DNA from: an uncultured Clostridia bacterium
Lineage (GTDB): Bacteria > Bacillota > Clostridia > Christensenellales > CAG-314
Length of the DNA: 64,000 bases
Direction of reading: 5' to 3'
NCBI GenBank assembly: GCA_947629985.1
Contig: CANRFV010000004.1
Location: forward strand, 26,308 to 90,307
Shown here in pieces: positions 4,487 to 56,320 of the stretch. The notes under the pieces are model-generated. The model had not been told where the DNA came from. It did not search any database and worked only from the letters and a program-made list of their open reading frames with translations. Within the stretch, counting starts at the first letter, position 1, and each line of letters starts with the position of its first letter. The position numbers and the translations under genes are program-made.

Positions 4487-6745
4487 ATGAAGCGTAAATT
4501 AAGTGCAAAAACTATTCTGCTGTACCTTACCTACGTGGCTTTGGCGGTAATTTCGGGCGGCGTATTCGACGGCAACCTTACTTTCGGTTTGTTTGTCGGC
4601 GCAACCTATTCGTCCAACCCGATAATCGCCTGCGTAATATATGTTGCGTGTTCGGCGGTGTACGGTTGGAACGCCGTTTTGCAATCAGCTGTAAGGGCGG
4701 CGGTAATAATGCTGGCGATATTACTGCACAAACTCATTCGCAAAAAAATCGGCAAACTAAACCTGTTGCTGTACCTGGTATCGGCAAATATTTTTTATTG
4801 CGTTTACAAGTGGGACGGCTATTTTGTTCTGTTTGACAGGTTGTTGTACGCCGCTTGCGGAATTGCCTTTGCCTACGTGTGCGTGTATGTGTTCCGCGCG
4901 GTGTTCGTTCGCGGGCTGTGTTACCGCCCCGCGCTGGACGAATCGGTGTGTATAGGGCTGTTTACGGTGGTTTTTGCGTATTGCCTTGCTCGCATTACGG
5001 TGGGGCAGTTGCAACTTGTGTACTTTGTTGTGCCCTTTGCCATACTGTTTGCGGCAACGTGTTTCGGCGATACCGCGGCGCTTGCGGGGGCGGTTTTGAT
5101 GGGCATAGGCAGTATTTTTGCCGACGGAACCTACGAGTGCTGCGCTTTTTGCGTAATTGCGGCGTTGGCGGCGGTTACTTTGTGCAAGGTAAACCGCTAC
5201 GCGGGCGCGCTGGCGGTGCTTATTGTGGACGTGTTGATGTCGTTTTTTCTCGATTTGCACGGACAATTCGGCGCGTTGGTATTTGCGCCGACGTTTGTGT
5301 CGTGCTTTGTGTTTGCGGTAATTCCGTCGTCGGTGTACCGATATGTTCACGATTACTGTTGCGGCAGTGCCGAGCGCTACTTGGGCAAAAGCGTCGCGCA
5401 AAAAATCGGCGACACCGTTTCGCGCCGCCTGTACAGGCTGTCGGACATATTTTTGTCTATGAAAAACGCGTTTTTTACAATGGCGTCGGGGCAAATATCC
5501 GAAGACGACGCCCGCAAAGCGTTGGTAAAGCAATGCAGCGACGCAATATGCGGCGGCTGTGCCAATCGCACGCGCTGTTGGCGGCAGGATCTTCGCGCGA
5601 CCGAAACGGACTTTTTGCAACTTGCGGAGTGCGCCGTAGGCAAAAACAAGTGTACCATATTGGACGTTCCGCAAACGCTGTCGGTCAAATGCGACAAAAT
5701 ATCCGCCGTTTTGGCGGAAATAAACGCTCAGGCGCAGATATATAGCGCTTACCGCAAGCGCGCCGAGCAAGCGGACAACGGCAAAACGCTGTTGGGCGAG
5801 CAAATGGGCGGCGTGTCGCGGCTGTTGTTGCAGTTGGCTTCCGATTGCAAAAACCGCACCGATTACGACCGCTCGCGCGAGCGCGAAATAGTAGAGCGGT
5901 TGGTTTTTCACAACGTGTTGTGTACGGGCGTGGCAATAGCGCGCCAACGCGACGTAATTACGGTAATAGCCACCGTTGCGCACAAGGACGTGGACGCGCC
6001 CACCATCGAAAAGGTGGTTTCGGCTGTGCTTAAACAAAATATGACCGTCGAGCGCGTGGATAATACCGACAGTCCCACCTGGGCAAGCGTGTATTTGGCG
6101 GTAAAACCGCGTTTCGACGTGGTATTCGGCATAAGTTCCGCGGCAAAGCAGGGCAGCGAAGTAAGCGGCGACACCCATTCGGTACTGCGCACGGATAACG
6201 GCAAGTGTATAATTGCGCTGTGCGACGGCATGGGCAGCGGCAGCAAAGCCGAGCAAATGTCGGCAACGTCCATCGGCTTGGTGGAAAACTTTTACCGCGC
6301 GGGTTTCGACAGCGACGTAATACTGTCCTGCGTAAACAAATTGCTGGTTACGGGCGGCAACGAAATTTTTTGCGCGGTGGATATGTTGGTGCTGGATCTG
6401 TACAACGGCTTGGCGGATTTCATCAAATTGGGCGCTTCGTCGGGGCTGGTAAAAACCGACGGCAAGGTGCAGATCGTCAGCGGCAGCAGTTTGCCGTTGG
6501 GCGTGCTGGAAGAAATGACTCCGTCCGTTACCAAAAAGGCGCTGTCGTCGGGCGACATTGCGGTAATAGTGTCCGACGGCGTTGCCGATTGCTTTGCCGA
6601 CGGCGAACGTCTTGCCGCCGTGTTCAACGATGTGTCGCTCAACGTCCCCCAAAGCATTGCGGAAGTAATACTTGCCAAGGCGCTTGCCGTATGCAAAAAC
6701 AAACCTGCCGACGATATGACCGTAATAGTGGCAAAAATAGTGTAA
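4487..6745 (+). CDS. spoIIE: Stage II sporulation protein E (polytopic membrane PP2C-type phosphatase)
   Basis: 752 aa. The N-terminal ~300 aa are multi-TM. The C-terminal PP2C domain reads ..GDTHSVLRTDNGKCIIALCDGMGSGSKAEQMS..FCAVDMLVLDLYNG..IAVIVSDGVAD..DDMTVIVAKI. Confidence 0.9.
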   Translation: MKRKLSAKTILLYLTYVALAVISGGVFDGNLTFGLFVGATYSSNPIIACVIYVACSAVYGWNAVLQSAVRAAVIMLAILLHKLIRKKIGKLNLLLYLVSANIFYCVYKWDGYFVLFDRLLYAACGIAFAYVCVYVFRAVFVRGLCYRPALDESVCIGLFTVVFAYCLARITVGQLQLVYFVVPFAILFAATCFGDTAALAGAVLMGIGSIFADGTYECCAFCVIAALAAVTLCKVNRYAGALAVLIVDVLMSFFLDLHGQFGALVFAPTFVSCFVFAVIPSSVYRYVHDYCCGSAERYLGKSVAQKIGDTVSRRLYRLSDIFLSMKNAFFTMASGQISEDDARKALVKQCSDAICGGCANRTRCWRQDLRATETDFLQLAECAVGKNKCTILDVPQTLSVKCDKISAVLAEINAQAQIYSAYRKRAEQADNGKTLLGEQMGGVSRLLLQLASDCKNRTDYDRSREREIVERLVFHNVLCTGVAIARQRDVITVIATVAHKDVDAPTIEKVVSAVLKQNMTVERVDNTDSPTWASVYLAVKPRFDVVFGISSAAKQGSEVSGDTHSVLRTDNGKCIIALCDGMGSGSKAEQMSATSIGLVENFYRAGFDSDVILSCVNKLLVTGGNEIFCAVDMLVLDLYNGLADFIKLGASSGLVKTDGKVQIVSGSSLPLGVLEEMTPSVTKKALSSGDIAVIVSDGVADCFADGERLAAVFNDVSLNVPQSIAEVILAKALAVCKNKPADDMTVIVAKIV

Positions 6746-6818
6746 AATCGCACCCCATATTGCACTTTTTGCCGATAACGCGCATATTGTATGGTATATT
6801 AGGCAAGGGGGCAAACGG

Positions 6819-7430
6819 GTGTCGCAATTTGTATTGGACGATACTGTCAAGGTGGGGCGCGGCGTAACTATCGAGCCGTACGCCGTGGTAAAGGGCAATT
6901 CGGTGCTGGGCGACGGCTGCGTTATAGGCAGTTTTTCGTATGTAAACAATTCCGTCATCGGCGCAAATACGGTAATTTGCGCTTGTCGCATTACCGATAG
7001 CGTCGTGGGCAACAACTGCACCGTCGGTCCCAACGCGCATCTGCGCCAACACGCGCAAATAGGCGACGATTGCCGCGTGGGCAACTTTGTGGAAGTAAAA
7101 AACAGCGTTGTCGGCAACGGCGTAAAGGCGGCGCACCTGTCCTACATCGGCGACGCGTCGGTGGGCGACGACACCAACATCGGTTGCGGAGTTATTTTCG
7201 TCAATTACGACGGCGTATACAAGCACCGTTCGCAAGTGGGCAAGCGGTGTTTTGTCGGCAGCAATTCCAACATTATCGCGCCCGTAACGTTGGGCGACGA
7301 CTGTTTTGTCGCGTGCGGCACAACCGTCAACAAAGATATGCCCGACGGCGCGTTCGGCATAGGTCGCAGTTATCTTACCGTAAAGGAAGGTCGGGCGCAA
7401 CTCTATCTCGGCAAACGTGCGGGCAAGTAA
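6819..7430 (+). CDS. Hexapeptide-repeat (left-handed beta-helix) acetyltransferase resembling only the C-terminal half of GlmU
   Basis: 203 aa with a GTG start 8 nt after AAGGGGG. Serial [LIV]G-x4 hexapeptides and ..HLSYIGDASVGDDTNIGCGVIFVNYDG..KHRSQVGKRCFVGSNSNIIAPVTLGDD.. match the GlmU acetyltransferase domain. There is no N-terminal uridyltransferase domain. Confidence 0.7.
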   Translation: MSQFVLDDTVKVGRGVTIEPYAVVKGNSVLGDGCVIGSFSYVNNSVIGANTVICACRITDSVVGNNCTVGPNAHLRQHAQIGDDCRVGNFVEVKNSVVGNGVKAAHLSYIGDASVGDDTNIGCGVIFVNYDGVYKHRSQVGKRCFVGSNSNIIAPVTLGDDCFVACGTTVNKDMPDGAFGIGRSYLTVKEGRAQLYLGKRAGK

Positions 7431-7719
7431 CTCCGATCGACAACTTGCGCGCACGCGTCGGTTCACAACGCAACGGAAGCGGTATATTCGTCTTTCTCAG
7501 CCGCGTCTGTTTGACGCACGCGTAAGCGCGAAATTTACCCTATTTTGCCACCCATATCCGCAATTACGACGTTTTGCCCGCTTGCAAACGTAGGGCAAGG
7601 CGGTGGCTGTCGGACACTGTGGCGTGTTTACGCAGTTTTACAAGCAAATAATTTGTGTAGTACCGGGCGCGCCGAGGCGGGGCTTGCTTTGGGAGCGTTA
7701 TTGCGCTGTGCTTTTTATA

Positions 7720-7748
7720 TTGACAGCGCGCGCGTAAAAATTTATAAT
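7720..7748 (+). promoter_or_regulatory. Sigma-A-type promoter upstream of the PPTase gene
   Basis: TTGACA (7720-7725), 17-nt spacer, TATAAT (7743-7748), about 50 nt upstream of ATG 7801. Confidence 0.6.
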
Positions 7749-7800
7749 ATTTATAAATAACACGCGGCAAGTCCGTCCGCGTATTTCAACAGGTTACTTT

Positions 7801-8622
7801 ATGGCACAATTTTTACACGCCCCTCATTCCGTATACGTTTACGTTGCGCATTTCGACAACGGCGTTTGCGTGCGCGACGTTTTGCCCGCAAGCCGCAACG
7901 ATTACGTCGCTTCGGCGGCAAATTCGCTTGTGCGCGCGCAACGTTACTGCGTGTGGCGGCTGTTGGACGTCGCCCTTACGCAATGCACGGGCAAGGGCGT
8001 AGCGGACCTTTCGCTTGTCCGTTGCGACGACGGTTTGTGGCGGTGCGCGGATAGCGGCGTGTATTTTTCGTTGTCGCACAGCGGCAATGCGGTGGCGGCT
8101 GCGGTAAGCGGCGTTGCCGTAGGCGTGGACGTGGAGTTGTACCGAGCCGAGCGTTTTAACAGCCGACTTGCGCGGCGTATTGCGTCCGACGACGAGTTAC
8201 GTGCGTATTCGTTGTGCGCTCCCGGTGAAAACAGCCGATTTGTCGCCGAACTGTGGGCGCGTAGGGAAAGCGCGTTCAAGTATTACCGCAACTGCGCGCG
8301 CGACGGCGTTTCGCAGTCGTCCGCCCCCGCACCCGATACGTGTTGCCGTTGGATATCCGTAGGCGGCGCACCCTTTGTTTTGTCCGTGTCGGCAAGCCCC
8401 GCAGCGGTAAGCCCCGTGTCGGCAAGCCCTGCGTCGGCAAGCCCCACCCGCGGCGCAAATATGTCGTCCGCAGTAGCGCCCACGGCGCCCGTTTCCGTAG
8501 CCGACTCTGTCGCAAGCGCCGTTACGTCCCCGTCTGCGCCGGATTTGTCCCGCATTTCCGCACAAACGCAGCCGTTGCTCGCCCGTTTGCACATCGTCGA
8601 AATGCACGATATGTTCAATTGA
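7801..8622 (+). CDS. Sfp-type 4'-phosphopantetheinyl transferase with Ala/Ser/Pro-rich C-terminal tail
   Basis: FSLSHSGN..VGVDVE..ELWARRESAFKYY corresponds to PPTase motifs (SHS / G-x-D-x-E / W-x-x-KE-x-x-K). The last ~90 aa are low complexity (SASPAAVSPVSASPASASP...). Confidence 0.7.
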   Translation: MAQFLHAPHSVYVYVAHFDNGVCVRDVLPASRNDYVASAANSLVRAQRYCVWRLLDVALTQCTGKGVADLSLVRCDDGLWRCADSGVYFSLSHSGNAVAAAVSGVAVGVDVELYRAERFNSRLARRIASDDELRAYSLCAPGENSRFVAELWARRESAFKYYRNCARDGVSQSSAPAPDTCCRWISVGGAPFVLSVSASPAAVSPVSASPASASPTRGANMSSAVAPTAPVSVADSVASAVTSPSAPDLSRISAQTQPLLARLHIVEMHDMFN

Positions 8623-9004: not shown

Positions 9005-10492
9005 ATGAAAAAAAGATTATTGATAATCTTAATGGCACTTGTACTTTGCCTTACCTTGGGCTTTGCAGTGGCGTGCGACCCGGACAAACCCGGTCCCAAC
9101 CCCAATCCCAATCCCTCTCCCAACCCACCGAGCGGAGACATTCCCACGCAGGAAGGCAAAATCACGTTGTACTTCACTATCAAAAACGTAGGTACAATGA
9201 ACCCCAAATGCTCGTATTATATTTGCGGTTCGTTCTTCGGTGAAGGCACCGGTTGGAAAGAAGGCAACCTTGAAGGTAAACTTACCAATATCGAAGGTAC
9301 CGACACATATTACTGCTTTGCGGATCCGTCCAGAGCAACGCCCGGCGCCGGTTTCAAAATCGTTATCGGTTACAACGAAACCAGCGGCGTAGACGTATCG
9401 CAACAAGGTCCGTTCTGGTCTAACGAAGGTTTCGGTCCTTGGCCCGCAGCGTCCGCCGACAACACCATTCCCGAATACGAAGCAGGCGCAACGTCTGTTT
9501 TCTGCCCGCTCAACTACGATCCCGCAGAATATTCCGACGTTATCGAATTCGACGGCAGTCTGGGAGATCCCGTTCCCGTTACCAACTTCCGTTTGAGAGT
9601 TAGTTTCGTAAAGGGACAACTTGACCCCGACAAGGCAGTGGTTTACATTCTCGGCGGCTTTACAAGTTGGGCTAACACCCCGGCAGACGAAAGAATAATC
9701 GCTTCCTACAACGAAGATGTTTCCGAAGAAGTTGACGTTTGGGAACTTACCATTGCCGAAATGTTTGCAAAACCCGACGTAGACTATCTCGTAGTCGTAT
9801 TCCCCCACGGACTTGAAGGTTTGACTCCGCTTGACGACGACGGCAACGTAGCAGACGCCGCAACGGCAACCGTTTGGTATTACTTCAATGCCGAAGGCAG
9901 CGATGCAATAAAAGTTGCGGACGGCACTGCAAATATGAAGACTGCCGTAACAAGCAGCGACAACAATCAATACATCGACCTTGCCGGAACTATCAGCGAA
10001 GCGTATGTCGGAACCCCGGCAAAAGGACTTGATACTACTCTTGTCGGAGAAGACGGCGTATTGGATATGAACGCTGACCAACCCACCGTTGAAGTATCCT
10101 TGAAAGTTAAATTTGCGAGCGCCGTTGCTGCGGATCTGCACGTTTATCTTATCGGCGATCTCAACAGTTGGGAAGCGGTTGAAATGACTGCAAATGCCGA
10201 TCGTACGGAATTTACCGCAAAATTGACTATGTATCAAAGAGACGCGGCTGCGTTGCTCAGCGGCGCTAAAAACGAGCGTCCCGACGGTGCTTGCCAATAC
10301 AAAGTGGTTTTGGCTACAGGCGCTTTCAGTTGGGAAGATACGACCCGTATTGACATCGGTTGCGCAGGCGACACAGACGGCGGCAGCGAAGTTCTCGTTA
10401 AACAAGGCGCTAAGAACTACGGACAAAAAGGTTTTACCGTAGAAGGTCCGAACGAACTGTTTGACGGCGCGGTAATCGAACTCCCCGCTTAA
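9005..10492 (+). CDS. Surface lipoprotein with Pro/Asn linker and three CBM-like repeats (putative alpha-glucan binding)
   Basis: Signal peptide plus lipobox (LGFAVAC), then PGPNPNPNPSPNPP. There are three ~130-aa segments, each with a hydrophobic-G-x-F/L-x-x-W signature (YYICGSFFGEGTGW, VYILGGFTSWAN, VYLIGDLNSWEAV). It lies at the head of the starch/maltodextrin locus. The function is inferred. Confidence 0.55.
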   Translation: MKKRLLIILMALVLCLTLGFAVACDPDKPGPNPNPNPSPNPPSGDIPTQEGKITLYFTIKNVGTMNPKCSYYICGSFFGEGTGWKEGNLEGKLTNIEGTDTYYCFADPSRATPGAGFKIVIGYNETSGVDVSQQGPFWSNEGFGPWPAASADNTIPEYEAGATSVFCPLNYDPAEYSDVIEFDGSLGDPVPVTNFRLRVSFVKGQLDPDKAVVYILGGFTSWANTPADERIIASYNEDVSEEVDVWELTIAEMFAKPDVDYLVVVFPHGLEGLTPLDDDGNVADAATATVWYYFNAEGSDAIKVADGTANMKTAVTSSDNNQYIDLAGTISEAYVGTPAKGLDTTLVGEDGVLDMNADQPTVEVSLKVKFASAVAADLHVYLIGDLNSWEAVEMTANADRTEFTAKLTMYQRDAAALLSGAKNERPDGACQYKVVLATGAFSWEDTTRIDIGCAGDTDGGSEVLVKQGAKNYGQKGFTVEGPNELFDGAVIELPA

Positions 10493-26908: not shown

Positions 26909-27194
26909 TGTAATTTTGCTTTTATTGTACAGCGTACTGATGTTTGCAACACTTTTTGTTAAAAACGACAAACTCAAATTGACAAAATTGGCGGCGATAT
27001 TGGGTATCGTTGTGGCAATTGTACACACAGTGTGTTTTTTCGTCGCACAAAGCCGTTGGGCGGTGTTGCTTACAAGCCTTGTACTGTTTATGGCTTATGG
27101 AATTGCCAATGGTTTAATTTTGAAAAAACACATATCGCATTGGTTAATACGATTTGTTGCGTCTGCTATAATATTCGTTTTATTTGTAATTTAG
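26895..27194 (+). CDS. Small membrane protein (3 TM), unknown function
   Basis: 99-aa hydrophobic ORF whose ATG overlaps the end of the MerR-like reading frame. Confidence 0.5.
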   Translation: MKISSVILLLLYSVLMFATLFVKNDKLKLTKLAAILGIVVAIVHTVCFFVAQSRWAVLLTSLVLFMAYGIANGLILKKHISHWLIRFVASAIIFVLFVI

Positions 27195-27227
27195 TAGCGT
27201 TACGTACATATTGGGGCGTAATTTTTT

Positions 27228-27538
27228 ATAAAGAGCGACAAATAAGCCGTGGTTAGTACACGGCTCGTTTCACAAAGCGAGGTGGAGTGGCGTGCGCAAA
27301 TCGAACAAAGCCCTACATTCTCAGCCCAGGAGTGTAGCGACGAACGCCACATCTTGCCGCACTCTCTTGTCAACCCCAACCGCAAACAATTTCGAAATAC
27401 ACAAAACCCGTGCTGCCGTCCTTGTCTGCGTCTCATGCCACCCAGGCGAATATCCATTCGCACGGGGACTCGCTCTTCCCCAAAAGTTTTGTTACGCTCA
27501 ACTTTTACAGGTTTTCGTATTCAATCTCCCGAACCCGC
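27228..27538 (-). ncRNA. Candidate structured RNA, copy A (unclassified family; long form)
   Basis: 311-nt element repeated at 30809-31086. It has many nested helices. The minus-strand 3' end is the hairpin AGCCGTG-tactaac-CACGGCT followed by TATTTGT. The closing helix works only in the minus-strand RNA (G-U instead of C-A). The ORFs across it are Arg/Cys-rich nonsense. Confidence 0.4.
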
Positions 27539-27563
27539 GGGCAACAAGCAAAAAGGCAGCAAT

Positions 27564-27595
27564 GGAAAAGGAAGCACCTTGTGTGATTCCTTTCC
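27564..27595 (-). terminator. Terminator of the helicase operon
   Basis: Minus strand: GGAAAGGAA-tcacacaaggtgc-TTCCTTTTCC, then ..GCCTTTTTGC. Confidence 0.5.
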
Positions 27596-27677
27596 GTTGC
27601 AACTAATAGGCGCAGTTGCCGCGCCTGCGGACCAAATGGCAAACAACATCGTAATTTAAGATATTGTTCTTATTATC

Positions 27678-29267
27678 CTATGCTATAAAATAATCTTGCA
27701 ATATTTTTTTGATATAGTAATATCGGCGTGCGTAAGAATTGTCAACTCTAATCAATTGAAATCCATATTGTTGACATAACTGCTGCTTTTTTACATCTCG
27801 TTCTTTTATTATGCTATCTTCAAAATGCTCTTTGCCGTCAAGTTCTATTGCCAAAATGGGCTGATTGTTAGATTTGTCGAATACCACAAAATCGAATGTA
27901 TCGGCAAAAAATAGCCCCGCTTTTTGGTCGGCGTCGTTAATAATTTGTTCGATAGGCACATTTGTCTTTGTTACATATTTTTTGTTTGTAGACTGAATAA
28001 CGCTCATTGCATGATTCAAACTTTCAAAAAACGCGGCTTCCGTATCGGCATTATATGGTTTTATGCCGAATGCTCTGGACTTAACTTGTTTGCTTGTTAC
28101 TTGCGATGTTCCATTGGATTGTATATATTGGATCAATTCGTACAAGTCGTCGTCTCCATCGGCACAGTGCAATCGCTCCAATTCTGTCAAACTTGCCAAT
28201 ACGATAAGTTGGTCTTTGGCGCGTGAAACAGCAACGTTTATTAGTTCTTTATTGTTTTTAAGCCAATCGTAAGTGCTTTGGCGAGTGGATTTTGTAAGCG
28301 CCAAGGAAAACATAATTACATTCTTTTCGTCCCCTTGAAACGCGTGTACGGTACCGCACGCAACATCATTGATTCCGTTAGCAACCAGCGCATCGTTGAT
28401 TAATTTTCGTTGATTTACAAATGGCGTAATAATTCCGATTTTTTTATCTCGGTTGAGCAAAATATATTTTAAAATTTGTTCGCACTCATTTGGTGCGGTA
28501 TTTTTTACTTCTGTTTCGTTGTCAAGTATATCCCAAATTTGCAGGGGATTAGGTTCGCAACTGTTGCTTCGTACTTTGAGTTTGCCGTTGTAATACTTTT
28601 TGTTGCTGAACTGAATAATTTTTTCGTTGGAGCGGTAGTGATAACTAAGTAAAACTTCTTCACTGCAACTATCGCAAGCCAGATATACATCATATATAGA
28701 TTTGTCTATGTAATCATATTCTTCGGCAACGTTGTACTTTTGGCGTAACAAGATATTTTTTTTCTTGTCCAACAAAATAACAGGTTTAAGTTGTTGCGGA
28801 TCGCCAACCAACATCAAAGAATTACCCCTTATGACAGAAAAAAGGGATACTGCGGAATTGCATTGGCTTGCTTCGTCCATTACCACCAAGTCAAAATACT
28901 GTTTTGGTTCTCCCAGTCTATACGACGAAATACACGTAGTTACAACAATTGGAAAAACTTTCAAAAACAGTTGAAAACTTTCATCGTTTCCTATATAATC
29001 ATTAAACGCTCTCCGCCGCGCTTGTTTGTCATCGATGTCCAAAATGTCATTCAACTCTTTGTATTCGGGATTATCCAATTGTTTAATTTGTTTTGCCGAA
29101 GTGTAGTACAAAAACTTTTGAAAAACATCCGAATCATCTTTCAGCAAATTAAGGGCTTCTTCGTTTGAAATTTCGCCGATTTCGTTTATGCGCTTGGTTA
29201 TTTTAGATATTTGGCGAGCCTGCAACTGTACCTTAAATGTCAAAAGTCCGGCATCTGCATTTTCCAA
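27678..29267 (-). CDS. SF1 (DNA2/Upf1-like) helicase C-terminal part fused to a PD-(D/E)xK (DUF2726/REase-like) nuclease domain
   Basis: VVMDEASQC (motif II), LVGDPQQLKPV (III), GTVHAFQGDEKNVIMFSL (V), NVAVSRAKDQLIV (VI). The C-terminus ..FDFVVFDKSNNQPILAIELDGKEHFED..ERDVKKQQLCQQYGFQLIRV is the endonuclease-like fold signature. There is no Walker A in this ORF. Confidence 0.8.
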   Translation of the reverse strand: MENADAGLLTFKVQLQARQISKITKRINEIGEISNEEALNLLKDDSDVFQKFLYYTSAKQIKQLDNPEYKELNDILDIDDKQARRRAFNDYIGNDESFQLFLKVFPIVVTTCISSYRLGEPKQYFDLVVMDEASQCNSAVSLFSVIRGNSLMLVGDPQQLKPVILLDKKKNILLRQKYNVAEEYDYIDKSIYDVYLACDSCSEEVLLSYHYRSNEKIIQFSNKKYYNGKLKVRSNSCEPNPLQIWDILDNETEVKNTAPNECEQILKYILLNRDKKIGIITPFVNQRKLINDALVANGINDVACGTVHAFQGDEKNVIMFSLALTKSTRQSTYDWLKNNKELINVAVSRAKDQLIVLASLTELERLHCADGDDDLYELIQYIQSNGTSQVTSKQVKSRAFGIKPYNADTEAAFFESLNHAMSVIQSTNKKYVTKTNVPIEQIINDADQKAGLFFADTFDFVVFDKSNNQPILAIELDGKEHFEDSIIKERDVKKQQLCQQYGFQLIRVDNSYARRYYYIKKILQDYFIA

Positions 29268-30340
29268 AAGGTCTTCTGCGGTTCCTTGCGTTCCTTTAAC
29301 TCAACAATTTCCATATATTTCTTTAACAATGTGGTAAGTTGCGTCATGCGCTCAACTTTTTCTTCACGGTATTTGTCTAAGGTTGACTCAAATATATTGA
29401 TATCTTTAACTTGTTCTCGCAAATGTTTTATATATTCAATTGCCAAATCAATCTTGTCGTTATTACCCAAACGTATTATGGGAAAAGGAATTATTTGATC
29501 GCGATATTTGAGACTTTTGAGAGATTCGGCAACGGTATCTATAGGGTGATTGTTGTATGATGAAAACAAAACCGTCTTTTTGTTAAAAAATGCGGTAACC
29601 AACGTGTTGATTATTGTCTTTGTTTTTCCCGTCCCGGGAGGCCCCTGTACATACGAAAGCGGACTGACAAATGCATTGTCAATTGCCAATATTTGATCGA
29701 GATTTATTTGATTGTTTACCAATGTAATGGGGTAATGCGCACCTCTTATTGGCGATACCAACTCTCCGAAAAAGGCTCTGATGGGTACAGGTATGGTGCC
29801 GTTTTCATACATATTTACAATGGACGAATATTCGCTTTCCAAGTTGACGGTAATATCCGATGCCAAAGCATAAATATACGGTAAATCGTCCACTTGTATT
29901 TTGTGGGCATGTTTAGAATAAATTTTGTCTTTTATTGCTTCTAAATTATTGGCGAAATTATCTAATAACGGCAAGTCGGTCTCGTCCAAATAATAAGTAA
30001 TATTGCAAACTTCCTGATTAACGTTAAATTCGTAACACAAAGACACATCGTCTTCTGCGCGCAGCGTACGTTTTATAGGGTTTAAGTATAGACGTTTGTA
30101 GGCCAGAACATACAAGCGATCTTTCTTATCTCTTATACTCAAAACATTCAGACCAAGTTGTTTCAGTTTCAATTTGTTTTGCTCCGACTTGCTATTTTGT
30201 TGAAAGTCTTTAACGATCGCATCAAATTGATTGTCGGAAAGGTGATACTCTCCGTTTATAAAGCAATCGTTGTCAAATTTTTCCAACAATTTGTAATCGA
30301 CGCAATATGGAACAGAATCCATCTTAAAGCAGTCCGCCAA
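29240..30340 (-). CDS. SF1 helicase N-terminal part (Walker A) - probably the same gene as 27678-29267, split by a frameshift
   Basis: ..YVQGPPGTGKTKTIINTLV.. (motif I) near the C-terminus. It overlaps the next ORF by 28 nt in another frame. The downstream frame is open only from ~29300, so the shift must lie within 29240-29300. Confidence 0.75.
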   Translation of the reverse strand: MADCFKMDSVPYCVDYKLLEKFDNDCFINGEYHLSDNQFDAIVKDFQQNSKSEQNKLKLKQLGLNVLSIRDKKDRLYVLAYKRLYLNPIKRTLRAEDDVSLCYEFNVNQEVCNITYYLDETDLPLLDNFANNLEAIKDKIYSKHAHKIQVDDLPYIYALASDITVNLESEYSSIVNMYENGTIPVPIRAFFGELVSPIRGAHYPITLVNNQINLDQILAIDNAFVSPLSYVQGPPGTGKTKTIINTLVTAFFNKKTVLFSSYNNHPIDTVAESLKSLKYRDQIIPFPIIRLGNNDKIDLAIEYIKHLREQVKDINIFESTLDKYREEKVERMTQLTTLLKKYMEIVELKERKEPQKTFWKMQMPDF

Positions 30341-30405
30341 ATAATTTAAGATTTTAAGATTGGGTATGTGTGAAAATAGTTTTTGGTATTTTACGCGATT
30401 TAGAT

Positions 30406-30675
30406 TTATTTCTCGTAAAGTTTTTCGTTTATAGGGTAATAAGTCCCATCTAAAACAACACTGCTAATAATGGATTTTATGTAAATTGTTTCAAACCTTG
30501 TAATTGTATGTTGCACCAAATGGAACCCTTCTACCGTGAGAGATTCCTTTTCGATATCGATATCAATTATGCCAATCCAATATTTGGTCTTTTTGTTTTC
30601 TTGATTTTGATATTCTATTTGTAGCCACTTACCCTCATGTATGGCGGTAAAAATATCTTTGCATATATTATTCAT
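30406..30675 (-). CDS. Small WYL-like (SH3 beta-barrel) domain protein
   Basis: 89 aa. The pattern ..WLQIEYQNQENKKTKYWIGIIDIDIEKESLTVEGFHLVQHTITRFETIYIKSI.. resembles a WYL domain. It is the first gene of the helicase operon. Confidence 0.45.
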   Translation of the reverse strand: MNNICKDIFTAIHEGKWLQIEYQNQENKKTKYWIGIIDIDIEKESLTVEGFHLVQHTITRFETIYIKSIISSVVLDGTYYPINEKLYEK

Positions 30676-30808
30676 AAAATCTACATTATTTCCATTAAAT
30701 TTTGATTAAATTATATCACAAAGCATTTTTAACCGCAAGGTGTTGTTTGTATGACAGTCGATTATATTGTAATTTAACAACGTTACTTGCCGATTGGGAC
30801 GCAATTTA

Positions 30809-31086
30809 ATAAAGAGCGGCAAATAAGCCGTGGTTAGTACAGGGTTCGACCCACATAGCGGGGTGGAGTGGCGCGTACAGAGCGAACAGAGCGCCACATT
30901 GGCGCCGCACTTCCTTGTCAACCCCAACCGCAAACAATTTCGAAATACACAAAACCCGTGCTGCCGTCCTTGTCTGCGTCTCATGCCACCCAGGCGAATA
31001 TCCATTCGCACGGGGACTCGCTCTTCCCCAAAAGTTTTGTTACGCTCAACTTTTACAGGTTTTCGTATTCAATCTCCCGAACCCGC
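30809..31086 (-). ncRNA. Candidate structured RNA, copy B (same family as 27228-27538)
   Basis: 278 nt. 30915-31086 is 172/172 identical to 27367-27538. The remainder is diverged but with compensatory stem changes. The same 3' hairpin-plus-T tract is present on the minus strand. It lies directly upstream (minus sense) of the WYL-helicase operon. Confidence 0.4.
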
Positions 31087-31164
31087 CCGCGCTTGAATGG
31101 CAAGTAAAAGGAGCGGTATGTAACTTCGCTCGCCCTTCCATATTTTTTTTGGGGGGGGCAGTTA

Positions 31165-32800: not shown

Positions 32801-33712
32801 ATGAAGTACAAAGAATGGTTGGAAATCTGGTTGAATAACTATGTAAAAATTACCTGTAAAGCACGCACAAGCGATATCTACCGTTATCGGATAGAACACT
32901 GTATTGCGCCGCATTTGGGCGAGTATGAATTGCGCGATTTGACATTGCCGACATTGCAACAGTTTGTTGCCAACCTACTGTTCAATCCAAGCAGCGGCAA
33001 ATCACTGTCGGCAAATACGGTAAACGGCGTAATTTCCATTGTGCAGAATTCTCTCAAAATCGCGCTATCGCTGGGGTATGTAGGCGCTTGCGACGCCAAT
33101 AAAATTTGTCGACCGAGAACAGTCGAAAAGAGAGTGGAATGTTTTTCGTTATTGGAACAAAAGCAAATAGAAATGCAAGTAAAAAACAGCAAAAAACTCA
33201 AACTCTACGGAATTGTAATTTGTATGTACACAGGTCTGCGTTTGGGCGAGTTGCTTGCTTTGGAGTGGAAAAATGTAGATTTGAACGCTTGTCAACTTAC
33301 GGTTGAAAAGACTTGTTACTACGTCAACGGACAACGCGTTGAAGACTCGCCCAAAACAAAAAACTCTTGGCGCGTAATTCCTTTTCCCAAACAATTGTTG
33401 CCGTTGTTCCAGGAAATGTATAAAGCGCATAAAACCGAGTATGTGGTCGAAGCGAACGGAAATCCCGTTTCGGTACATTCTTATCAGCGTAGTTTTGAGT
33501 TGCTGTTAAAAAAACTCCAAATTCCGCACAAAGGCTTTCATTCTTTGCGACATACATTTGCAACACGAGCATTGGAGTGCGGAATGGACGTAAAAACGCT
33601 TGCGGAGATATTGGGACACGCCAACCCGACCGTAACACTAAAACGTTATGCGCACAGTATGCAGGAATACAAGATTCAGATGATGAACAAACTTGGCAAA
33701 TTGTTGACTTAA
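32801..33712 (+). CDS. Tyrosine recombinase / phage-type integrase
   Basis: 303 aa. N-terminal SAM-like core-binding domain. The C-terminal catalytic region ..GLRLGELLALEW.. and ..HSLRHTFATRALECGMDVKTLAEILGHANPTVTLKRYAH.. carries the R..H-x-x-R..H..Y signature. Confidence 0.9.
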   Translation: MKYKEWLEIWLNNYVKITCKARTSDIYRYRIEHCIAPHLGEYELRDLTLPTLQQFVANLLFNPSSGKSLSANTVNGVISIVQNSLKIALSLGYVGACDANKICRPRTVEKRVECFSLLEQKQIEMQVKNSKKLKLYGIVICMYTGLRLGELLALEWKNVDLNACQLTVEKTCYYVNGQRVEDSPKTKNSWRVIPFPKQLLPLFQEMYKAHKTEYVVEANGNPVSVHSYQRSFELLLKKLQIPHKGFHSLRHTFATRALECGMDVKTLAEILGHANPTVTLKRYAHSMQEYKIQMMNKLGKLLT

Positions 33713-33737: not shown

Positions 33738-33754
33738 CTCGTCAAAATTGGAAT

Positions 33755-33915
33755 GTATTAGCATAATAGATGTACAAAATCCGGACTTTTTAAGTTTTAA
33801 TTGCTCTTTTATTTAATACAAAATTCGACAAAAAAACAAAATCGAAGCGAAAACTATTTACATTTCAAAATCAAAGCTATATAATATTTTTATATTGTAC
33901 ATCTATTATGCTAAT
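33755..33915. repeat. 21-bp perfect inverted repeat pair bracketing the operon promoter
   Basis: attagcataatagatgtacaa (33755-33775) and its exact reverse complement ttgtacatctattatgctaat (33895-33915). Confidence 0.9.
33857..33885 (+). promoter_or_regulatory. Sigma-A-type promoter of the 12.8-kb operon
   Basis: TTTACA, 17-nt spacer, TATAAT (33880-33885). The right IR arm starts about 10 nt downstream of the -10 box. Confidence 0.55.
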
Positions 33916-34151
33916 AGATGCTCAAAACGCTTCCCGCAATTTATATTCAAAAACACAAACAGATGCGCTATTTGTAACGGGAAATTTGACAAAATTTTGG
34001 CACAAAAATTGTAGAATGTTATTTGAAAAAAGAGAGATATTTTTACAAATTTTCAACATCGCGCTAATTGCGCAGACCTTCGGTCAGCCGTATCGGGTTG
34101 TTTCCCGTTCGGGACAAATACAATAAACAAAATAAGTAAGGAGAAATATTA

Positions 34152-53036: not shown

Positions 53037-53216
53037 ATGAAGTGTTTTATTTGTGGCAAAGAAACCGATTGGGAAACAACAAACAACCAACCAATATGTC
53101 CCGATTGTAAAAATGAAAGAGGTTACGAGGTGTGTAATACACTGGGAAAAGTTATAGCCGACAGAACTTTCATTTGCGATCATATATGCAACGATTGCTG
53201 TTTGATAAACAAGTAA
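53037..53216 (+). CDS. 59-aa CxxC...CxxC zinc-ribbon protein (not in ORF track, under 60 aa)
   Basis: Own translation: MKCFICGKETDWETTNNQPICPDCKNERGYEVCNTLGKVIADRTFICDHICNDCCLINK. AAGGAGG 7 nt upstream. Divergent from the XRE gene and downstream of the operator-bearing promoter. Confidence 0.55.
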   Translation: MKCFICGKETDWETTNNQPICPDCKNERGYEVCNTLGKVIADRTFICDHICNDCCLINK

Positions 53217-53270
53217 GGCGATAATAATATTAAACCCATCAAAAAAATTTATTTTATAAAAGAAGAAATT

Positions 53271-54461
53271 ATGAGAAATACAATGAAAAAACACTTATTG
53301 TGGTTGCTATGTATCGTATTGTTGACAACAATAGTTGCTCTCGTGGCTTGCGATGGCGATGACGTTGAACCCGACACACAAGGTGTGGTATATACACTTT
53401 CCGATGACGGACAGGGCTACTGTGTGTCAGACGGCGACGAAGCAAGTGGCGACATTGAAATATTATCGAATTACAAAGGCTTGCCTGTCGTTGGTATAAA
53501 CGATGTGGTGTTTTCTGATAATAGTGCTTTAACGTCTGTTACCATTCCGAGTAGCGTTACACTAATAGGTGCATTTGCATTCAACGAATGCAACAATTTG
53601 AAAACAGTAAAATTTGAAAACGGCAGTAAGCTAAAAAGTATAGGAGCGTATGCTTTCAGCAAGTGTAGCAATCTGACAACGATCACAATTCCAAGTGAAG
53701 TTACAAGCATAGGAAACGGTTCTTTCGACAATTGTAGCAGTCTCACAACGATTAATGTACCAAATAGCGTTACGGACATAGGTAACGATTCTTTCTACAA
53801 TTGCAAAAATTTGCAAACGGTAGTATTAGAAAGAAACAGTAAACTGCAAAACATTGGCAACTCTGCGTTCAACCATTGCGACAGTCTTACAAACTTTAAG
53901 TTTCCAAGTAGCGTTACAAAAATAGGCGAGATGGCTTTTGGGAGTTGCAATTTGCAAACGGCAACATTTGGAAAAGACAGCAAGCTGGAAAGTTTAGGTC
54001 TTGGTGCCTTTTGGTATTGCAAAAATCTAACATCCGTCACCATTCCAAACAATATTAAAAGCATTGGGAAAAACGCTTTTTATGGTTGTGACAGTTTGAA
54101 GTACACCAAGTCCGATGGAGCTTCATACCTTGGTAACGAAGAGAATAATTATTTAGCATTAGTAAGACAAAGTACTTTTTCGTCATCTTGCACTATTGCA
54201 AATACAACAAAAATAATATGTTCCGGTGCATTCTCGGATTGTACGCGAATTACATCTATCACAATTCCTAGTAGCGTAACAAGCATAGGCAAGTGGGCTT
54301 TCTCGGGATGTACAGGGTTGAACAGTGTTGTATTTGAAAATCCCAATGGATGGAAGGCTGGCGATACAAACCTTACCTGTACAAACCCGTCTACAAACGC
54401 GAAAAATCTCGGAGATCTTTTTTACTATAATTACAGTGATTACGATTGGACGCGTTCCTAA
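53271..54461 (+). CDS. BspA-type leucine-rich-repeat surface lipoprotein
   Basis: Lipobox (ALVAC). About 11 consecutive ..SVT.IG..AF..C..L..I.IP.. LRR_5-like units. Confidence 0.8.
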   Translation: MRNTMKKHLLWLLCIVLLTTIVALVACDGDDVEPDTQGVVYTLSDDGQGYCVSDGDEASGDIEILSNYKGLPVVGINDVVFSDNSALTSVTIPSSVTLIGAFAFNECNNLKTVKFENGSKLKSIGAYAFSKCSNLTTITIPSEVTSIGNGSFDNCSSLTTINVPNSVTDIGNDSFYNCKNLQTVVLERNSKLQNIGNSAFNHCDSLTNFKFPSSVTKIGEMAFGSCNLQTATFGKDSKLESLGLGAFWYCKNLTSVTIPNNIKSIGKNAFYGCDSLKYTKSDGASYLGNEENNYLALVRQSTFSSSCTIANTTKIICSGAFSDCTRITSITIPSSVTSIGKWAFSGCTGLNSVVFENPNGWKAGDTNLTCTNPSTNAKNLGDLFYYNYSDYDWTRS

Positions 54462-54483
54462 GTTGATATATTACGAACAAACA

Positions 54484-54518
54484 AGAAAGGAACGGATTGC
54501 AAAATGCCGTTCCTTTCT
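54484..54518 (+). terminator. 12-bp perfect hairpin after the LRR lipoprotein gene
   Basis: AGAAAGGAACGG-attgcaaaatg-CCGTTCCTTTCT. Confidence 0.6.
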
Positions 54519-54665
54519 GTCTGCGCGTGAATTGTTTTTTCAGTAATTTTACCACATATTGTGTCGCTGCCTGTAATCTCACATTTTATACTTGGCGACA
54601 TGTTCTAATCAAAATCGCTATTCTCAAACATGTTTTGGCATTATATTCAAAGGAGTTGCTATAGG

Positions 54666-55223
54666 ATGAGTAAGAAAAACGGCGCTACAAAGGTAAAAAA
54701 TGACTGTAGAAATTGCCCAAATGTAAAAAAGAAGGTTATCAAATATATTGTTCCGAGCAAAATTAACGATACTGAAATAAAGAATCTACTTTTATATTTC
54801 CTTTATTTTGCGCCAAATATCGATAGCGTACATCATTCAAGTATACCGGATACAGAGAACCACGATGCGATATTTCATGAAATGACTGACAATGCAAAAA
54901 CACTATCGTTTTACGTAGAAATATCTTCGGTAAATAACAATTTGCAGAAAAGTCATTTGGCAAATAATTATGTTTGTTTGAAATGTGTGCGTGCCATATG
55001 TCAAAGAAAAGGATCGGACAAAACAGATTTAGACTGTTTCTTGAGACATATAAGAAATTCTATAGCTCATGGTAGAATTGTGTACTGTCATGAAAGCCAT
55101 AGACATTACATAATGTTTGAAGATGTAACCCCCAATGGAAACATATCCGCAAGAATTGTATGCAACAAATCTTGTCTATTGAATTGGAGAAGAATATTGG
55201 AAAAATATTCAACAAAAAGCTGA
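54666..55223 (+). CDS. Hypothetical protein with HEPN-like R-x4-H motif
   Basis: Start set to ATG 54666 after AAAGGAG. ..DCFLRHIRNSIAHGRIVY.. contains R-N-S-I-A-H, the Rx4H signature of many HEPN RNases. Last gene at the island edge. Confidence 0.4.
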   Translation: MSKKNGATKVKNDCRNCPNVKKKVIKYIVPSKINDTEIKNLLLYFLYFAPNIDSVHHSSIPDTENHDAIFHEMTDNAKTLSFYVEISSVNNNLQKSHLANNYVCLKCVRAICQRKGSDKTDLDCFLRHIRNSIAHGRIVYCHESHRHYIMFEDVTPNGNISARIVCNKSCLLNWRRILEKYSTKS

Positions 55224-55261: not shown

Positions 55262-55412
55262 AAATACCCAGCCAAACCCCTGCGGGTTCGACGGGCGTTG
55301 TTCGGTGGTCGATACAGGGCTCGTCTCCCGCGCAGCGGGAGTAAGTGGAGCAACACATAGTGTTGCGGAACGCTACATAATTCGTCGTCCTGCACTCGCC
55401 CGCGCTTGAGCG
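55262..55412 (-). ncRNA. Candidate structured RNA, copy C (short, diverged member of the 27228/30809 family)
   Basis: Shares with copies A/B the 3' module (minus: ACGAGCCCTGTATCGACCACCG versus ACGAGCCGTGTACTAACCACGG), the GTGGAG box followed by a hairpin (GCAACAC-ata-GTGTTGC) and the 5' flank cgcccgcgcttga..ggcaagtaaa. It lacks the 172-nt block. Confidence 0.3.
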
Positions 55413-55426
55413 GCAAGTAAACAGGA

Positions 55427-55470
55427 GCAACAGAAAAAGAGCGTGCCTTGCGCACACTCTTTTCTGTTGC
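55427..55470 (-). terminator. Terminator of the tRNA operon
   Basis: Minus strand: GCAACAGAAAAGAGTGTGCGC-aagg-CACGCTCTTTTTCTGTTGC, a long imperfect hairpin rich in U at its 3' side, 25 nt after tRNA-Val. Confidence 0.65.
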
Positions 55471-55495
55471 GGCCAACAAACGCAGCCGCTCAATC

Positions 55496-55571
55496 TGGTG
55501 GGGAGTACAGGGCTCGAACCTGTGACCCCCTGCTTGTAAGGCAGATGCTCTCCCAACTGAGCTAACTCCCC
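55496..55571 (-). tRNA. tRNA-Val (anticodon UAC), CCA encoded
   Basis: Hand-folded: GGGGAGT/ACTCCCC acceptor, D arm GCTC..GAGC, anticodon loop CTTACAA, T arm ACAGG-TTCGAGC-CCTGT, 76 nt. Confidence 0.9.
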
Positions 55572-55790: not shown

Positions 55791-55819
55791 ATTGTAACAA
55801 ACAAATCGAATATTGTCAA
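55791..55819 (-). promoter_or_regulatory. Sigma-A-type promoter of the tRNA operon
   Basis: Minus strand: TTGACA (55819-55814), 17-nt spacer, TACAAT (55796-55791), about 55 nt upstream of tRNA-Met. Confidence 0.55.
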
Positions 55820-55889
55820 CAAAATTGACGATGTTTTTGCACAAAATGAATTGGCGCCCCGCGCAATGTGATTTTTCGCGCCGCAATTT

Positions 55890-56320
55890 GCCGATAATGC
55901 GTTGTTCGATGTTGTTTTGGCGCATTATTTTGCCATTGCAAACCAAACATTAACGTTATTTTGATTGTCGTAATCTATGCCGCGGATATAATATATCGCC
56001 GCAAGCCGTTTGCAAGCGCGCAACATTGCCGCGCTCGCCCATATATGTTGAGTAAACGGCGGTGCGCATACGCAATTTTGCCGTCCATCGCGTTTAAGGT
56101 GCCGATAATGCATTGTTCGATGTTGTTTTGGCGCATTATTTTGCCGTTGCAAGCCAGCATTGATATTCATTGATTGCAGTAATCTATGCCGCAGATATAA
56201 TGTGTCGCCGCAAGCCGTTCGCAAGCGTGCCACATTGCCGCACTCGCCCATATAACGTAGGGTAAACAGCAGTGTGTATACGCCATTTTGCCGCCCATCG
56301 CGTTTGTTGTGCCGATGTCC
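55890..56320. repeat. ~211-bp tandem direct repeat, two copies plus the start of a third
   Basis: 55890-56100 versus 56101-56310, both starting gccgataatgc(g/a)ttgttcgatgttgttttggcgcattattttgcc. Roughly 80% identity. gccgatg.. restarts at 56311. Confidence 0.85.

Follow-up and report, generated by a model that had tools for sequence, protein, structure and literature searches.

Organization of the locus

The window, i.e., the whole 64,000-nt stretch of DNA that was analyzed, contains a Met-Glu-Val tRNA operon, for which a promoter scan located the promoter at 55819–55791. The last gene of the operon is tRNA-Val(tac), identified at 55496–55571 on the minus strand using ARAGORN and Rfam. Three related non-coding elements were found on the minus strand, at ~27186–27600 (copy A), ~30768–31131 (copy B), and ~55293–55495 (copy C). 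Leading away from the tRNA, the DNA is a stack of a 203-bp unit (copy C), a 24-kb island that ends in copy B, and a 3.5-kb WYL/helicase cassette that ends in copy A. The accessory island (31132–55270) is low in GC and lies between copies B and C. Its cargo comprises an Xer-like tyrosine recombinase (32801–33712), a putatively invertible promoter, an ESCRT-like operon, and ClpP, as well as a VirD4-type coupling protein, an FtsK-like protein, an LRR protein, and a HEPN protein. The cargo of the 3.5-kb cassette (27539–30767, minus strand) consists of a WYL-like gene of 89 aa and a split SF1 helicase with a DUF2726 nuclease-like domain, as assigned with Pfam.

The preliminary description of this DNA had presented the three repeats as an unclassified structured RNA family at island junctions and had proposed a comparison with Rfam. 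The repeats are real, they form a structured non-coding family, and they do sit at the island junctions. The Rfam comparison gave no family for copies A, B, and C: nothing matched at the gathering score, and the permissive E-value mode returned only generic hairpins. Over the whole window, tRNAs were the only Rfam matches at the gathering score, and ARAGORN, which was run for tmRNA, permuted tmRNA, and tRNA, found only three tRNAs. Five ORFs that lie over the copies had no Pfam match at E ≤ 1. A 22-nt pattern of the 5′ block gave three chance matches among 185,579 species genomes, all in unrelated phyla, and a pattern of the box plus tail gave eight chance matches in metagenome contigs, all in coding DNA. 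Two patterns searched in viral contigs had no match, and blastn against plasmids and phages also gave no match.

Copies A and B share a block of which 172 of 172 bases are identical (27367–27538 and 30915–31086). This block was likewise identical in contigs of three other studies, while its neighbouring bases differ by 12–18%; beside it, A and B show ~82% identity over ~100–150 nt, with indels. The block occurs once per element, which makes two copies in this genome and no more. Copy C is related but shorter; the central ~170 nt are missing from it, and its 5′ and 3′ blocks are those that it has in common with copy B. Compared with copy C, the 172-nt block looks like an insertion into the module. 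The 5′ blocks of B and C also contain a 31-bp imperfect direct repeat (31084–31114 and 55397–55428).

Read along the minus strand, copy B (30768–31131), the end module of the 24-kb island, is joined to the start of the helicase cassette. It comprises a hairpin (31111–31131), the 5′ block with the 31-bp repeat, the 172-nt block, hairpin 1 (30868–30897), the box (30862–30868), hairpin 2 (30849–30861), a tail copy (30830–30848), and a trailer in which the promoter scan placed the WYL operon promoter (30766–30793), just after the tail. Copy A (27186–27600), the end module of the WYL/helicase cassette, has a terminator hairpin (27559–27600), the 172-nt block, hairpin 1 (27287–27350), the box (27281–27287), hairpin 2 (27268–27282), a tail copy (27249–27267), and a trailer (27186–27248). 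The gene-less copy C (55293–55495) runs from a trailer through a terminator hairpin, the 5′ block, an anti-tail, and a two-hairpin core to its junction with a displaced old tail.

The terminator hairpin of copy C (GCAACAGAAA...TTTCTGTTGC; 55427–55470, minus strand) was found by pattern search. It was considered as a part specific to the elements and was rejected as such, being a multi-copy module behind which the sequence usually differs. In rabbit-gut metagenomes, the module lies behind many tRNA genes, its flanks include tRNA 3′ ends, and its depth is 10–20 times that of the flanks at a likeness of at least 90% and up to ~40 times at a likeness of at least 80%. As a separate observation, a terminator module of ~45–65 nt with the form GCAACRGAAA..TTYCYRTTGC was seen at 27540–27606, at 55427–55470, and at 9609–9650 of L007. 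It has a variable, compensated inner stem, is usually located ~20 nt past the 3′ end of one of various tRNA genes, and shows a sharp edge at 27538/27539. The preliminary description had placed each element between two terminators. Upstream hairpins are indeed present in all copies and the downstream one is clear for C, but A and B have there only a 4-bp stem that the terminator scan did not report.

tRNA tail copies and the insertion of copy C

The minus-strand 3′ end of each copy is a decayed copy of the last ~20 nt of tRNA-Val(tac). In all three copies the likeness begins at T-loop position C56 and runs in the orientation of the tRNA (tRNA, CGAGCCCTGTACTCCCCACCA; B, CGAACCCTGTACTAACCAC; A, CGAGCCGTGTACTAACCAC; C, CGAGCCCTGTATCGACCACC). 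Against the last 20 encoded bases of the tRNA before its CCA end, tail B matched at 16 and tail A at 14 positions; tail C matched the same bases at 13 of 20 positions when counted by eye from the sequence. Tail C is the displaced and decayed 3′ end of tRNA-Val from C56 onward (CGAGCCCTGTATCGACCACCG; 55303–55323, minus strand). Tails A and B are unlike the local tRNA-Val in the acceptor part, which reads ACTAACC rather than ACTCCCC. Since the 3′ ends of the copies resemble the tRNA-Val 3′ end, the 3′ arm of a long-range helix that had been proposed to close the element is the T-loop/T-stem portion of a tRNA tail copy.

The target gene was then compared with its counterparts elsewhere. In L038, from a related species, a terminator (TACGATACCCAGTCGA..TCGACTGGGTTTTT) comes immediately after tRNA-Val, and in the relative L035 a plain terminator stands behind tRNA-Val, with no cassette; copy C is absent from both. 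The window has a terminator of this native type at 55271–55292 (minus strand; terminator scan), after tail C, and the mini-cassette now separates it from the tRNA. It is homologous to the terminator that directly follows tRNA-Val in L038 and also to the one behind a perfect fragment of the tRNA-Val tail in the related genome L004. In metagenome contigs, ~55292 is joined to 55496, so that 203–204 bases are skipped. Because relatives and metagenome contigs alike have tRNA-Val joined directly to the terminator, 203 bp were inserted at T55|C56, and copy C is, on this comparative evidence, a gene-less insertion of 203 bp into tRNA-Val. With the inserted DNA came a new tail and a trailer as well as a terminator hairpin and the module, while the old tail and the native terminator were displaced downstream.

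These empty sites do not agree with a conserved chromosomal gene. A related alternative places a resident chromosomal sRNA gene, the A/B-type element, behind the tRNA operon, where islands would use it as an integration target. The 31-bp direct repeat in the 5′ blocks of B and C would suit such a target. However, relatives carry no such gene behind tRNA-Val, the 22-nt pattern of the 5′ block had no more than its three chance matches among the species genomes, every copy bears a tRNA tail as an inserted unit would, and a promoter is lacking. We therefore regard a resident sRNA gene as highly improbable.

The two-hairpin core

Two hairpins with a short linker lie just 5′ of the C56 junction in every copy. 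In copy C, this core (55325–55366, minus strand) is composed of hairpin 2 (CTCCCGC/GCGGGAG; 55325–55341), a linker with GTGGAG (55342–55349), and hairpin 1 (GCAACAC/GTGTTGC; 55350–55366). Hairpins 1 and 2 are GTGGCGC/GCGCCAC and CCCGC/GTGGG in copy B, and GTGGCGT/ACGCCAC and TCGC/GTGA in copy A. That the copies carry different hairpins at the same place had been noticed before and proved correct for A, B, and C, and L004 has a fourth version with TTGGC/GCCAA as hairpin 1 and CCCA/TGGG as hairpin 2. The comparison of A with B yields only one compensatory pair. Fold energies of the core relative to shuffled sequences gave z values on the minus/plus strands of −5.5/−4.2 for C, −2.1/−1.4 for L004, −2.0/−3.1 for B, and 0.0/−2.3 for A. 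The core is thus significantly folded, with a z as low as −5.5, and it retains its shape across different sequences, but neither strand is favoured.

The abundance of the core was analyzed in metagenomes. In four rabbit-gut runs, the segment 55321–55384 reached a depth of up to ~260, compared with roughly 7–10 for flanking single-copy DNA; overall, a core of ~45–60 nt just before each tail has a depth 10–25 times that of its flanks. Its flanks in the metagenomes are the reverse complements of other tRNA tails. The high depth together with the varied tRNA-tail flanks indicates that the core is a multi-copy family fused to several different tRNAs. Within the metagenome sequences, loop positions are far more variable than stem positions, and one variant has two double-sided stem changes in hairpin 1. 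Single-sided changes give G–T pairs on either strand. Among 4–5 independent sequences, a few double-sided changes were seen (the A/B hairpins and one variant of run X9), and the RNAalifold covariation term was −0.59.

An IS200-type element was observed at 8500–9130 of L004, inside a C-like cassette and just upstream of the two-hairpin core. It has end hairpins, and its Y1 transposase frame is split into pieces of 78 and 75 aa. The IS200 gene was considered as the transposase of the cassette, which was not supported: with ends of its own and a broken frame, the element looks like a separate insertion.

The anti-tail and predicted folds

Upstream of the core, copy C contains a stretch that we call the anti-tail (GGGCGAGTGCAGGAC; 55387–55401, minus strand), which was read from the sequence. 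It pairs with the functional tRNA-Val tail at 10 of 11 positions, through nine Watson–Crick pairs and one G–U pair. At the homologous position, one metagenome contig with a Val tail has a complement that is perfect over 12 nt and reads CCCTGTACTCCC on the plus strand. For a second tail type, the 9-mer TCCAGTCAC was found on both sides of the core, the two ends not being tied to one contig. The anti-tail proper is decayed in A and B.

To represent an excised circle, or the state prior to tail decay, a sequence was constructed from the C module and an intact tail. The construct gave a closed, multi-branch fold with a z of −4.7 (−4.9 for a variant), whereas the genomic sequence of C with its decayed tail gave −2.3. 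The preliminary description had proposed GGGTTCG/CGAACCC as the helix that closes the element. This helix has 7 of 7 pairs in B, and A retains five Watson–Crick pairs and one G–U pair, but it is not kept at the homologous place in C, and the T-arm sequence is itself palindromic; as a conserved closing helix it was therefore rejected in that form. Since the C module with an intact tail closes on the anti-tail, the idea of a closing helix was nonetheless right in kind. Consecutive helices had also been drawn within the conserved block. The complementary segments are present, but two bases (27460–27461) belong to both GCACGGG and ATTCGC, and the block is invariant; because it never varies, its helices carry no covariation information. 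The whole A/B element folds no better than shuffled sequences (z of +0.33 on the minus and −0.23 on the plus strand).

The earlier assignment to a free-standing minus-strand RNA gene of ~160–330 nt was not supported. The promoter scan found no sigma-70-like promoter inside any copy, and a look for RNA runs that contain the sequence found none. The wobble pairs that were thought to be strand-specific are G–T pairs seen on either strand, and in A and B the plus strand folds no worse than the minus strand, so that neither the wobble nor the energy argument stands. Thus, the data argue only weakly for a minus-strand sRNA. Another possibility is that transcription of the tRNA operon or of the upstream cassette genes reads through into the module and yields a structured RNA, which is conceivable because the upstream hairpins of C and B have weak T-tracts. 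The anti-tail and tail would then form a minihelix like an acceptor/T-stem that closes two or three hairpins, and the tRNA-like RNA would guide a recombinase to a tRNA gene or have another RNA function. All copies indeed lie on the strand of the upstream genes, just past the hairpins; the C module with an intact tail folds closed into its multi-branch structure; stems vary less than loops, with two double-sided changes in hairpin 1 of one metagenome variant; and the anti-tail matches the tail of the tRNA in front. Nevertheless, there is no promoter within the copies, wobble pairs and fold energies are without strand preference, the anti-tail has decayed in A and B, no Rfam relative was found, and no gene for an RNA-guided recombinase was found among the window ORFs scanned. 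Overall, we consider an expressed RNA of this kind unlikely.

The recombinase of the island

The Xer-like protein of 303 aa is the only recombinase in the island and is without an arm-binding domain. Its best NCBIfam matches were the XerA, XerC, and integron-integrase models, at 49–79 bits against cut-offs of 220–335. Among viral contigs, its relatives were limited to matches of 25% identity. An IS110-type recombinase was not found among the ORFs that flank the three copies or among the island ORFs scanned. Homologues of the Xer-like recombinase adjoin a tRNA-Val tail in L004 and a tRNA-Arg gene in L007, as an island integrase would. The recombinase of the window is inverted relative to the tails in comparison with L004 and L007, lies 1.7 kb from copy B, and has beside it a promoter segment whose orientation in L004 is the reverse of that in the window.

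This segment of ~160 bp lies just downstream of the recombinase gene (33751–33919; 10952–11113 in L004), is bounded by 21-bp inverted repeats, and has opposite orientations in the two sequences, with 75% identity on the reverse strand. The arrangement fits an invertible, phase-variable promoter of the ESCRT-like operon, for which the adjacent Xer-like recombinase is likely to be the invertase. In L026 and L028, homologues of the recombinase with 65–84% identity head quite different downstream operons, for example, an AAA/RuvB-like set that includes SprT, or an E2-CBASS/JAB/ThiF set together with an FtsK-like protein. It is possible that this recombinase is a portable head for variable defence-like operons.

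A proposed stack of mobile cassettes at the tRNA-Val T-loop

The reading that we favour, with a probability of about 0.6, is that the three elements are non-coding distal end (att-side) modules of mobile cassettes stacked at the T-loop of tRNA-Val(tac), at T55/C56. Each unit would begin with a spare tRNA tail and a trailer, would carry cargo optionally, and would close with a terminator hairpin followed by the module, which consists of the 5′ block, the anti-tail, and the two-hairpin core and abuts the tail displaced by the insertion. The module would be an att-type recombination part for a recombinase that either comes from the island or is provided in trans. Through the homology between modules, and most of all through the identical block of 172 bp, units would also be gained or lost by ordinary recombination. 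Directly observed, and counting toward this reading, are the architecture of the locus, the tail copies and empty sites, and the multi-copy core. Against it, no recombinase is tied to the sites, and the Xer-like one may instead serve the adjoining invertible promoter.

The exchange of units is illustrated by the helicase cassette, which together with one repeat copy forms a unit of 3548 bp that some strains have and others lack. In runs X5 and X6, from two other studies of the rabbit gut, contigs join 27365 to 30914, skipping 3548 bp, and keep a single element with the left part of A, the 172-nt block, and the right part of B. In these short contigs, the breakpoints are in or at the 172-nt block and not at the tail or T-loop; plain homologous recombination explains the polymorphism equally well. 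The contigs with the chromosomal neighbour of copy A all end at the repeat. A variant of copy A in run X9 (27203–27335) has B-type bases at 27269, 27275, 27280, and 27293, with A-type bases around them, and 10 of its 14 differences are in the loop of hairpin 1. This pattern points to an A/B mosaic that arose by gene conversion between the copies.

Such exchanges would also be expected if the elements were inert scars, i.e., decayed att regions or old island remnants that are neutral and shuffled only by homologous recombination, their hairpins being leftover terminators or chance palindromes. The decay of the tails to 13–16 matches in 20, the breakpoints in the 172-nt block, and the mosaic of run X9 agree with this explanation. 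Neutral debris, however, accounts poorly for a two-hairpin core that four sequence versions retain in one and the same position and that is found in high copy with different tRNA tails in several independent studies, for an invariant 172-nt block whose neighbours differ by 12–18%, or for an anti-tail that tracks the tail. We consider inert scars quite improbable.

The stacked-cassette reading leaves a choice for the form in which the module would be read. The hairpins keep their shape and not their sequence, which would fit a role as RNA or single-stranded DNA; duplex protein-binding sites do not usually show such hairpins, nor an anti-tail that matches the target. These two features make a folded single strand, of DNA or RNA, a live option. 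A more far-reaching proposal, which we put forward as doubtful, is that the module is the working part of a protein-less, retargetable cassette. The anti-tail and tail would mimic the top half of a tRNA as single-stranded DNA or RNA, and a trans-acting recombinase would read the mimic and insert the cassette at the T-loop of the matching tRNA. In that case, the tRNA genes of gut Clostridia would be platforms, much like integrons, on which defence cargo is stacked.

Comparison with known systems

The best reading of the tRNA-Val array, as judged from the arrangement of its parts, is a variant of the known tandem tRNA/tmRNA islands and of CIME accretion. [quoted passage not shown] Cis-mobilizable elements (CIMEs) and their accretion, e.g., ICESt1/CIME, have been reviewed (PMC5704250). 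Similarly, the units described here are stacked downstream of an RNA gene, are each bounded by a repeat of ~20 nt of the 3′ end of that gene, have a conserved motif just upstream of the repeat, include some without an integrase, and carry variable, defence-like cargo. In contrast to those systems, one unit is only 203 bp long and gene-less, the junction motif is a two-hairpin core of ~45–60 nt plus a complement of the tRNA tail, similar cores are fused to several tRNA tails, and no cognate integrase was identified. In a limited literature search, we found no description of a gene-less 203-bp unit, of a core common to different tRNA targets, or of an anti-tail.

The att site of mycobacteriophage Ms6 is in the T-loop of a tRNA-Ala (PMC1762012). 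As in such phage and island sites, the crossover region at tRNA-Val would be in the T-loop, and the element carries a tRNA 3′ end that restores the gene. However, sites of the Ms6 type have an arm-binding integrase encoded beside attP, while the only candidate here is the Xer-like recombinase, whose placement and orientation relative to the tail are inconsistent.

Integron attC and the attP of phage CTX are folded single-stranded sites, and XerCD acts on the latter (PMC5027507, PMC4792948). The elements of the window resemble them in that structure is kept above sequence, cassettes are stacked at one site, a simple tyrosine recombinase of the Xer/IntI kind is present, and the closing stem would recreate the target duplex. 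They differ from attC in that no R or L boxes were recognised by eye and the hairpins are short, at 5–7 bp. Furthermore, unlike for attC and CTX attP, the recombinase is far below the IntI, XerC, and XerD cut-offs and there is no evidence that only one strand is used.

The bridge RNA of IS110 and the seekRNA of IS1111 come from a structured non-coding end of a mobile element, with a stretch complementary to the target. The structured non-coding end at tRNA-Val also contains a complement of its target. Nevertheless, a recombinase of the IS110 type (DEDD/serine) was absent among the ORFs scanned here, no promoter was found inside the copies, and the complement is a 10–12-nt copy of the tRNA tail that pairs with the tail copy inside the element.

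If the module is a recognition device, it would explain the spread of gene-less 200-bp units and of multi-kb defence cassettes behind many tRNA genes in uncultured gut Clostridia. The recombination site would be set by structure and by complementarity to the target and not by a fixed sequence, which would matter for island biology and might offer a retargetable integration tool. If the modules are only att-site debris, the locus would be an ordinary accretion array.

Variation next to copy C

Two further observations concern the DNA on either side of copy C and the tRNA operon. The strain variant L029 has an identical MFS neighbour, and its cargo beside copy C is swapped (6444–8295, corresponding to 53039–55072 of the window): a PadR regulator and a flavodoxin-like/FMN reductase are found where the window has the LRR protein and the greater part of the HEPN gene. 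Between the promoter region of the tRNA operon and the MFS gene, the window has two tandem repeats of ~210 bp that are 85–95% alike (55889–56254), and L029 also has these tandem repeats.
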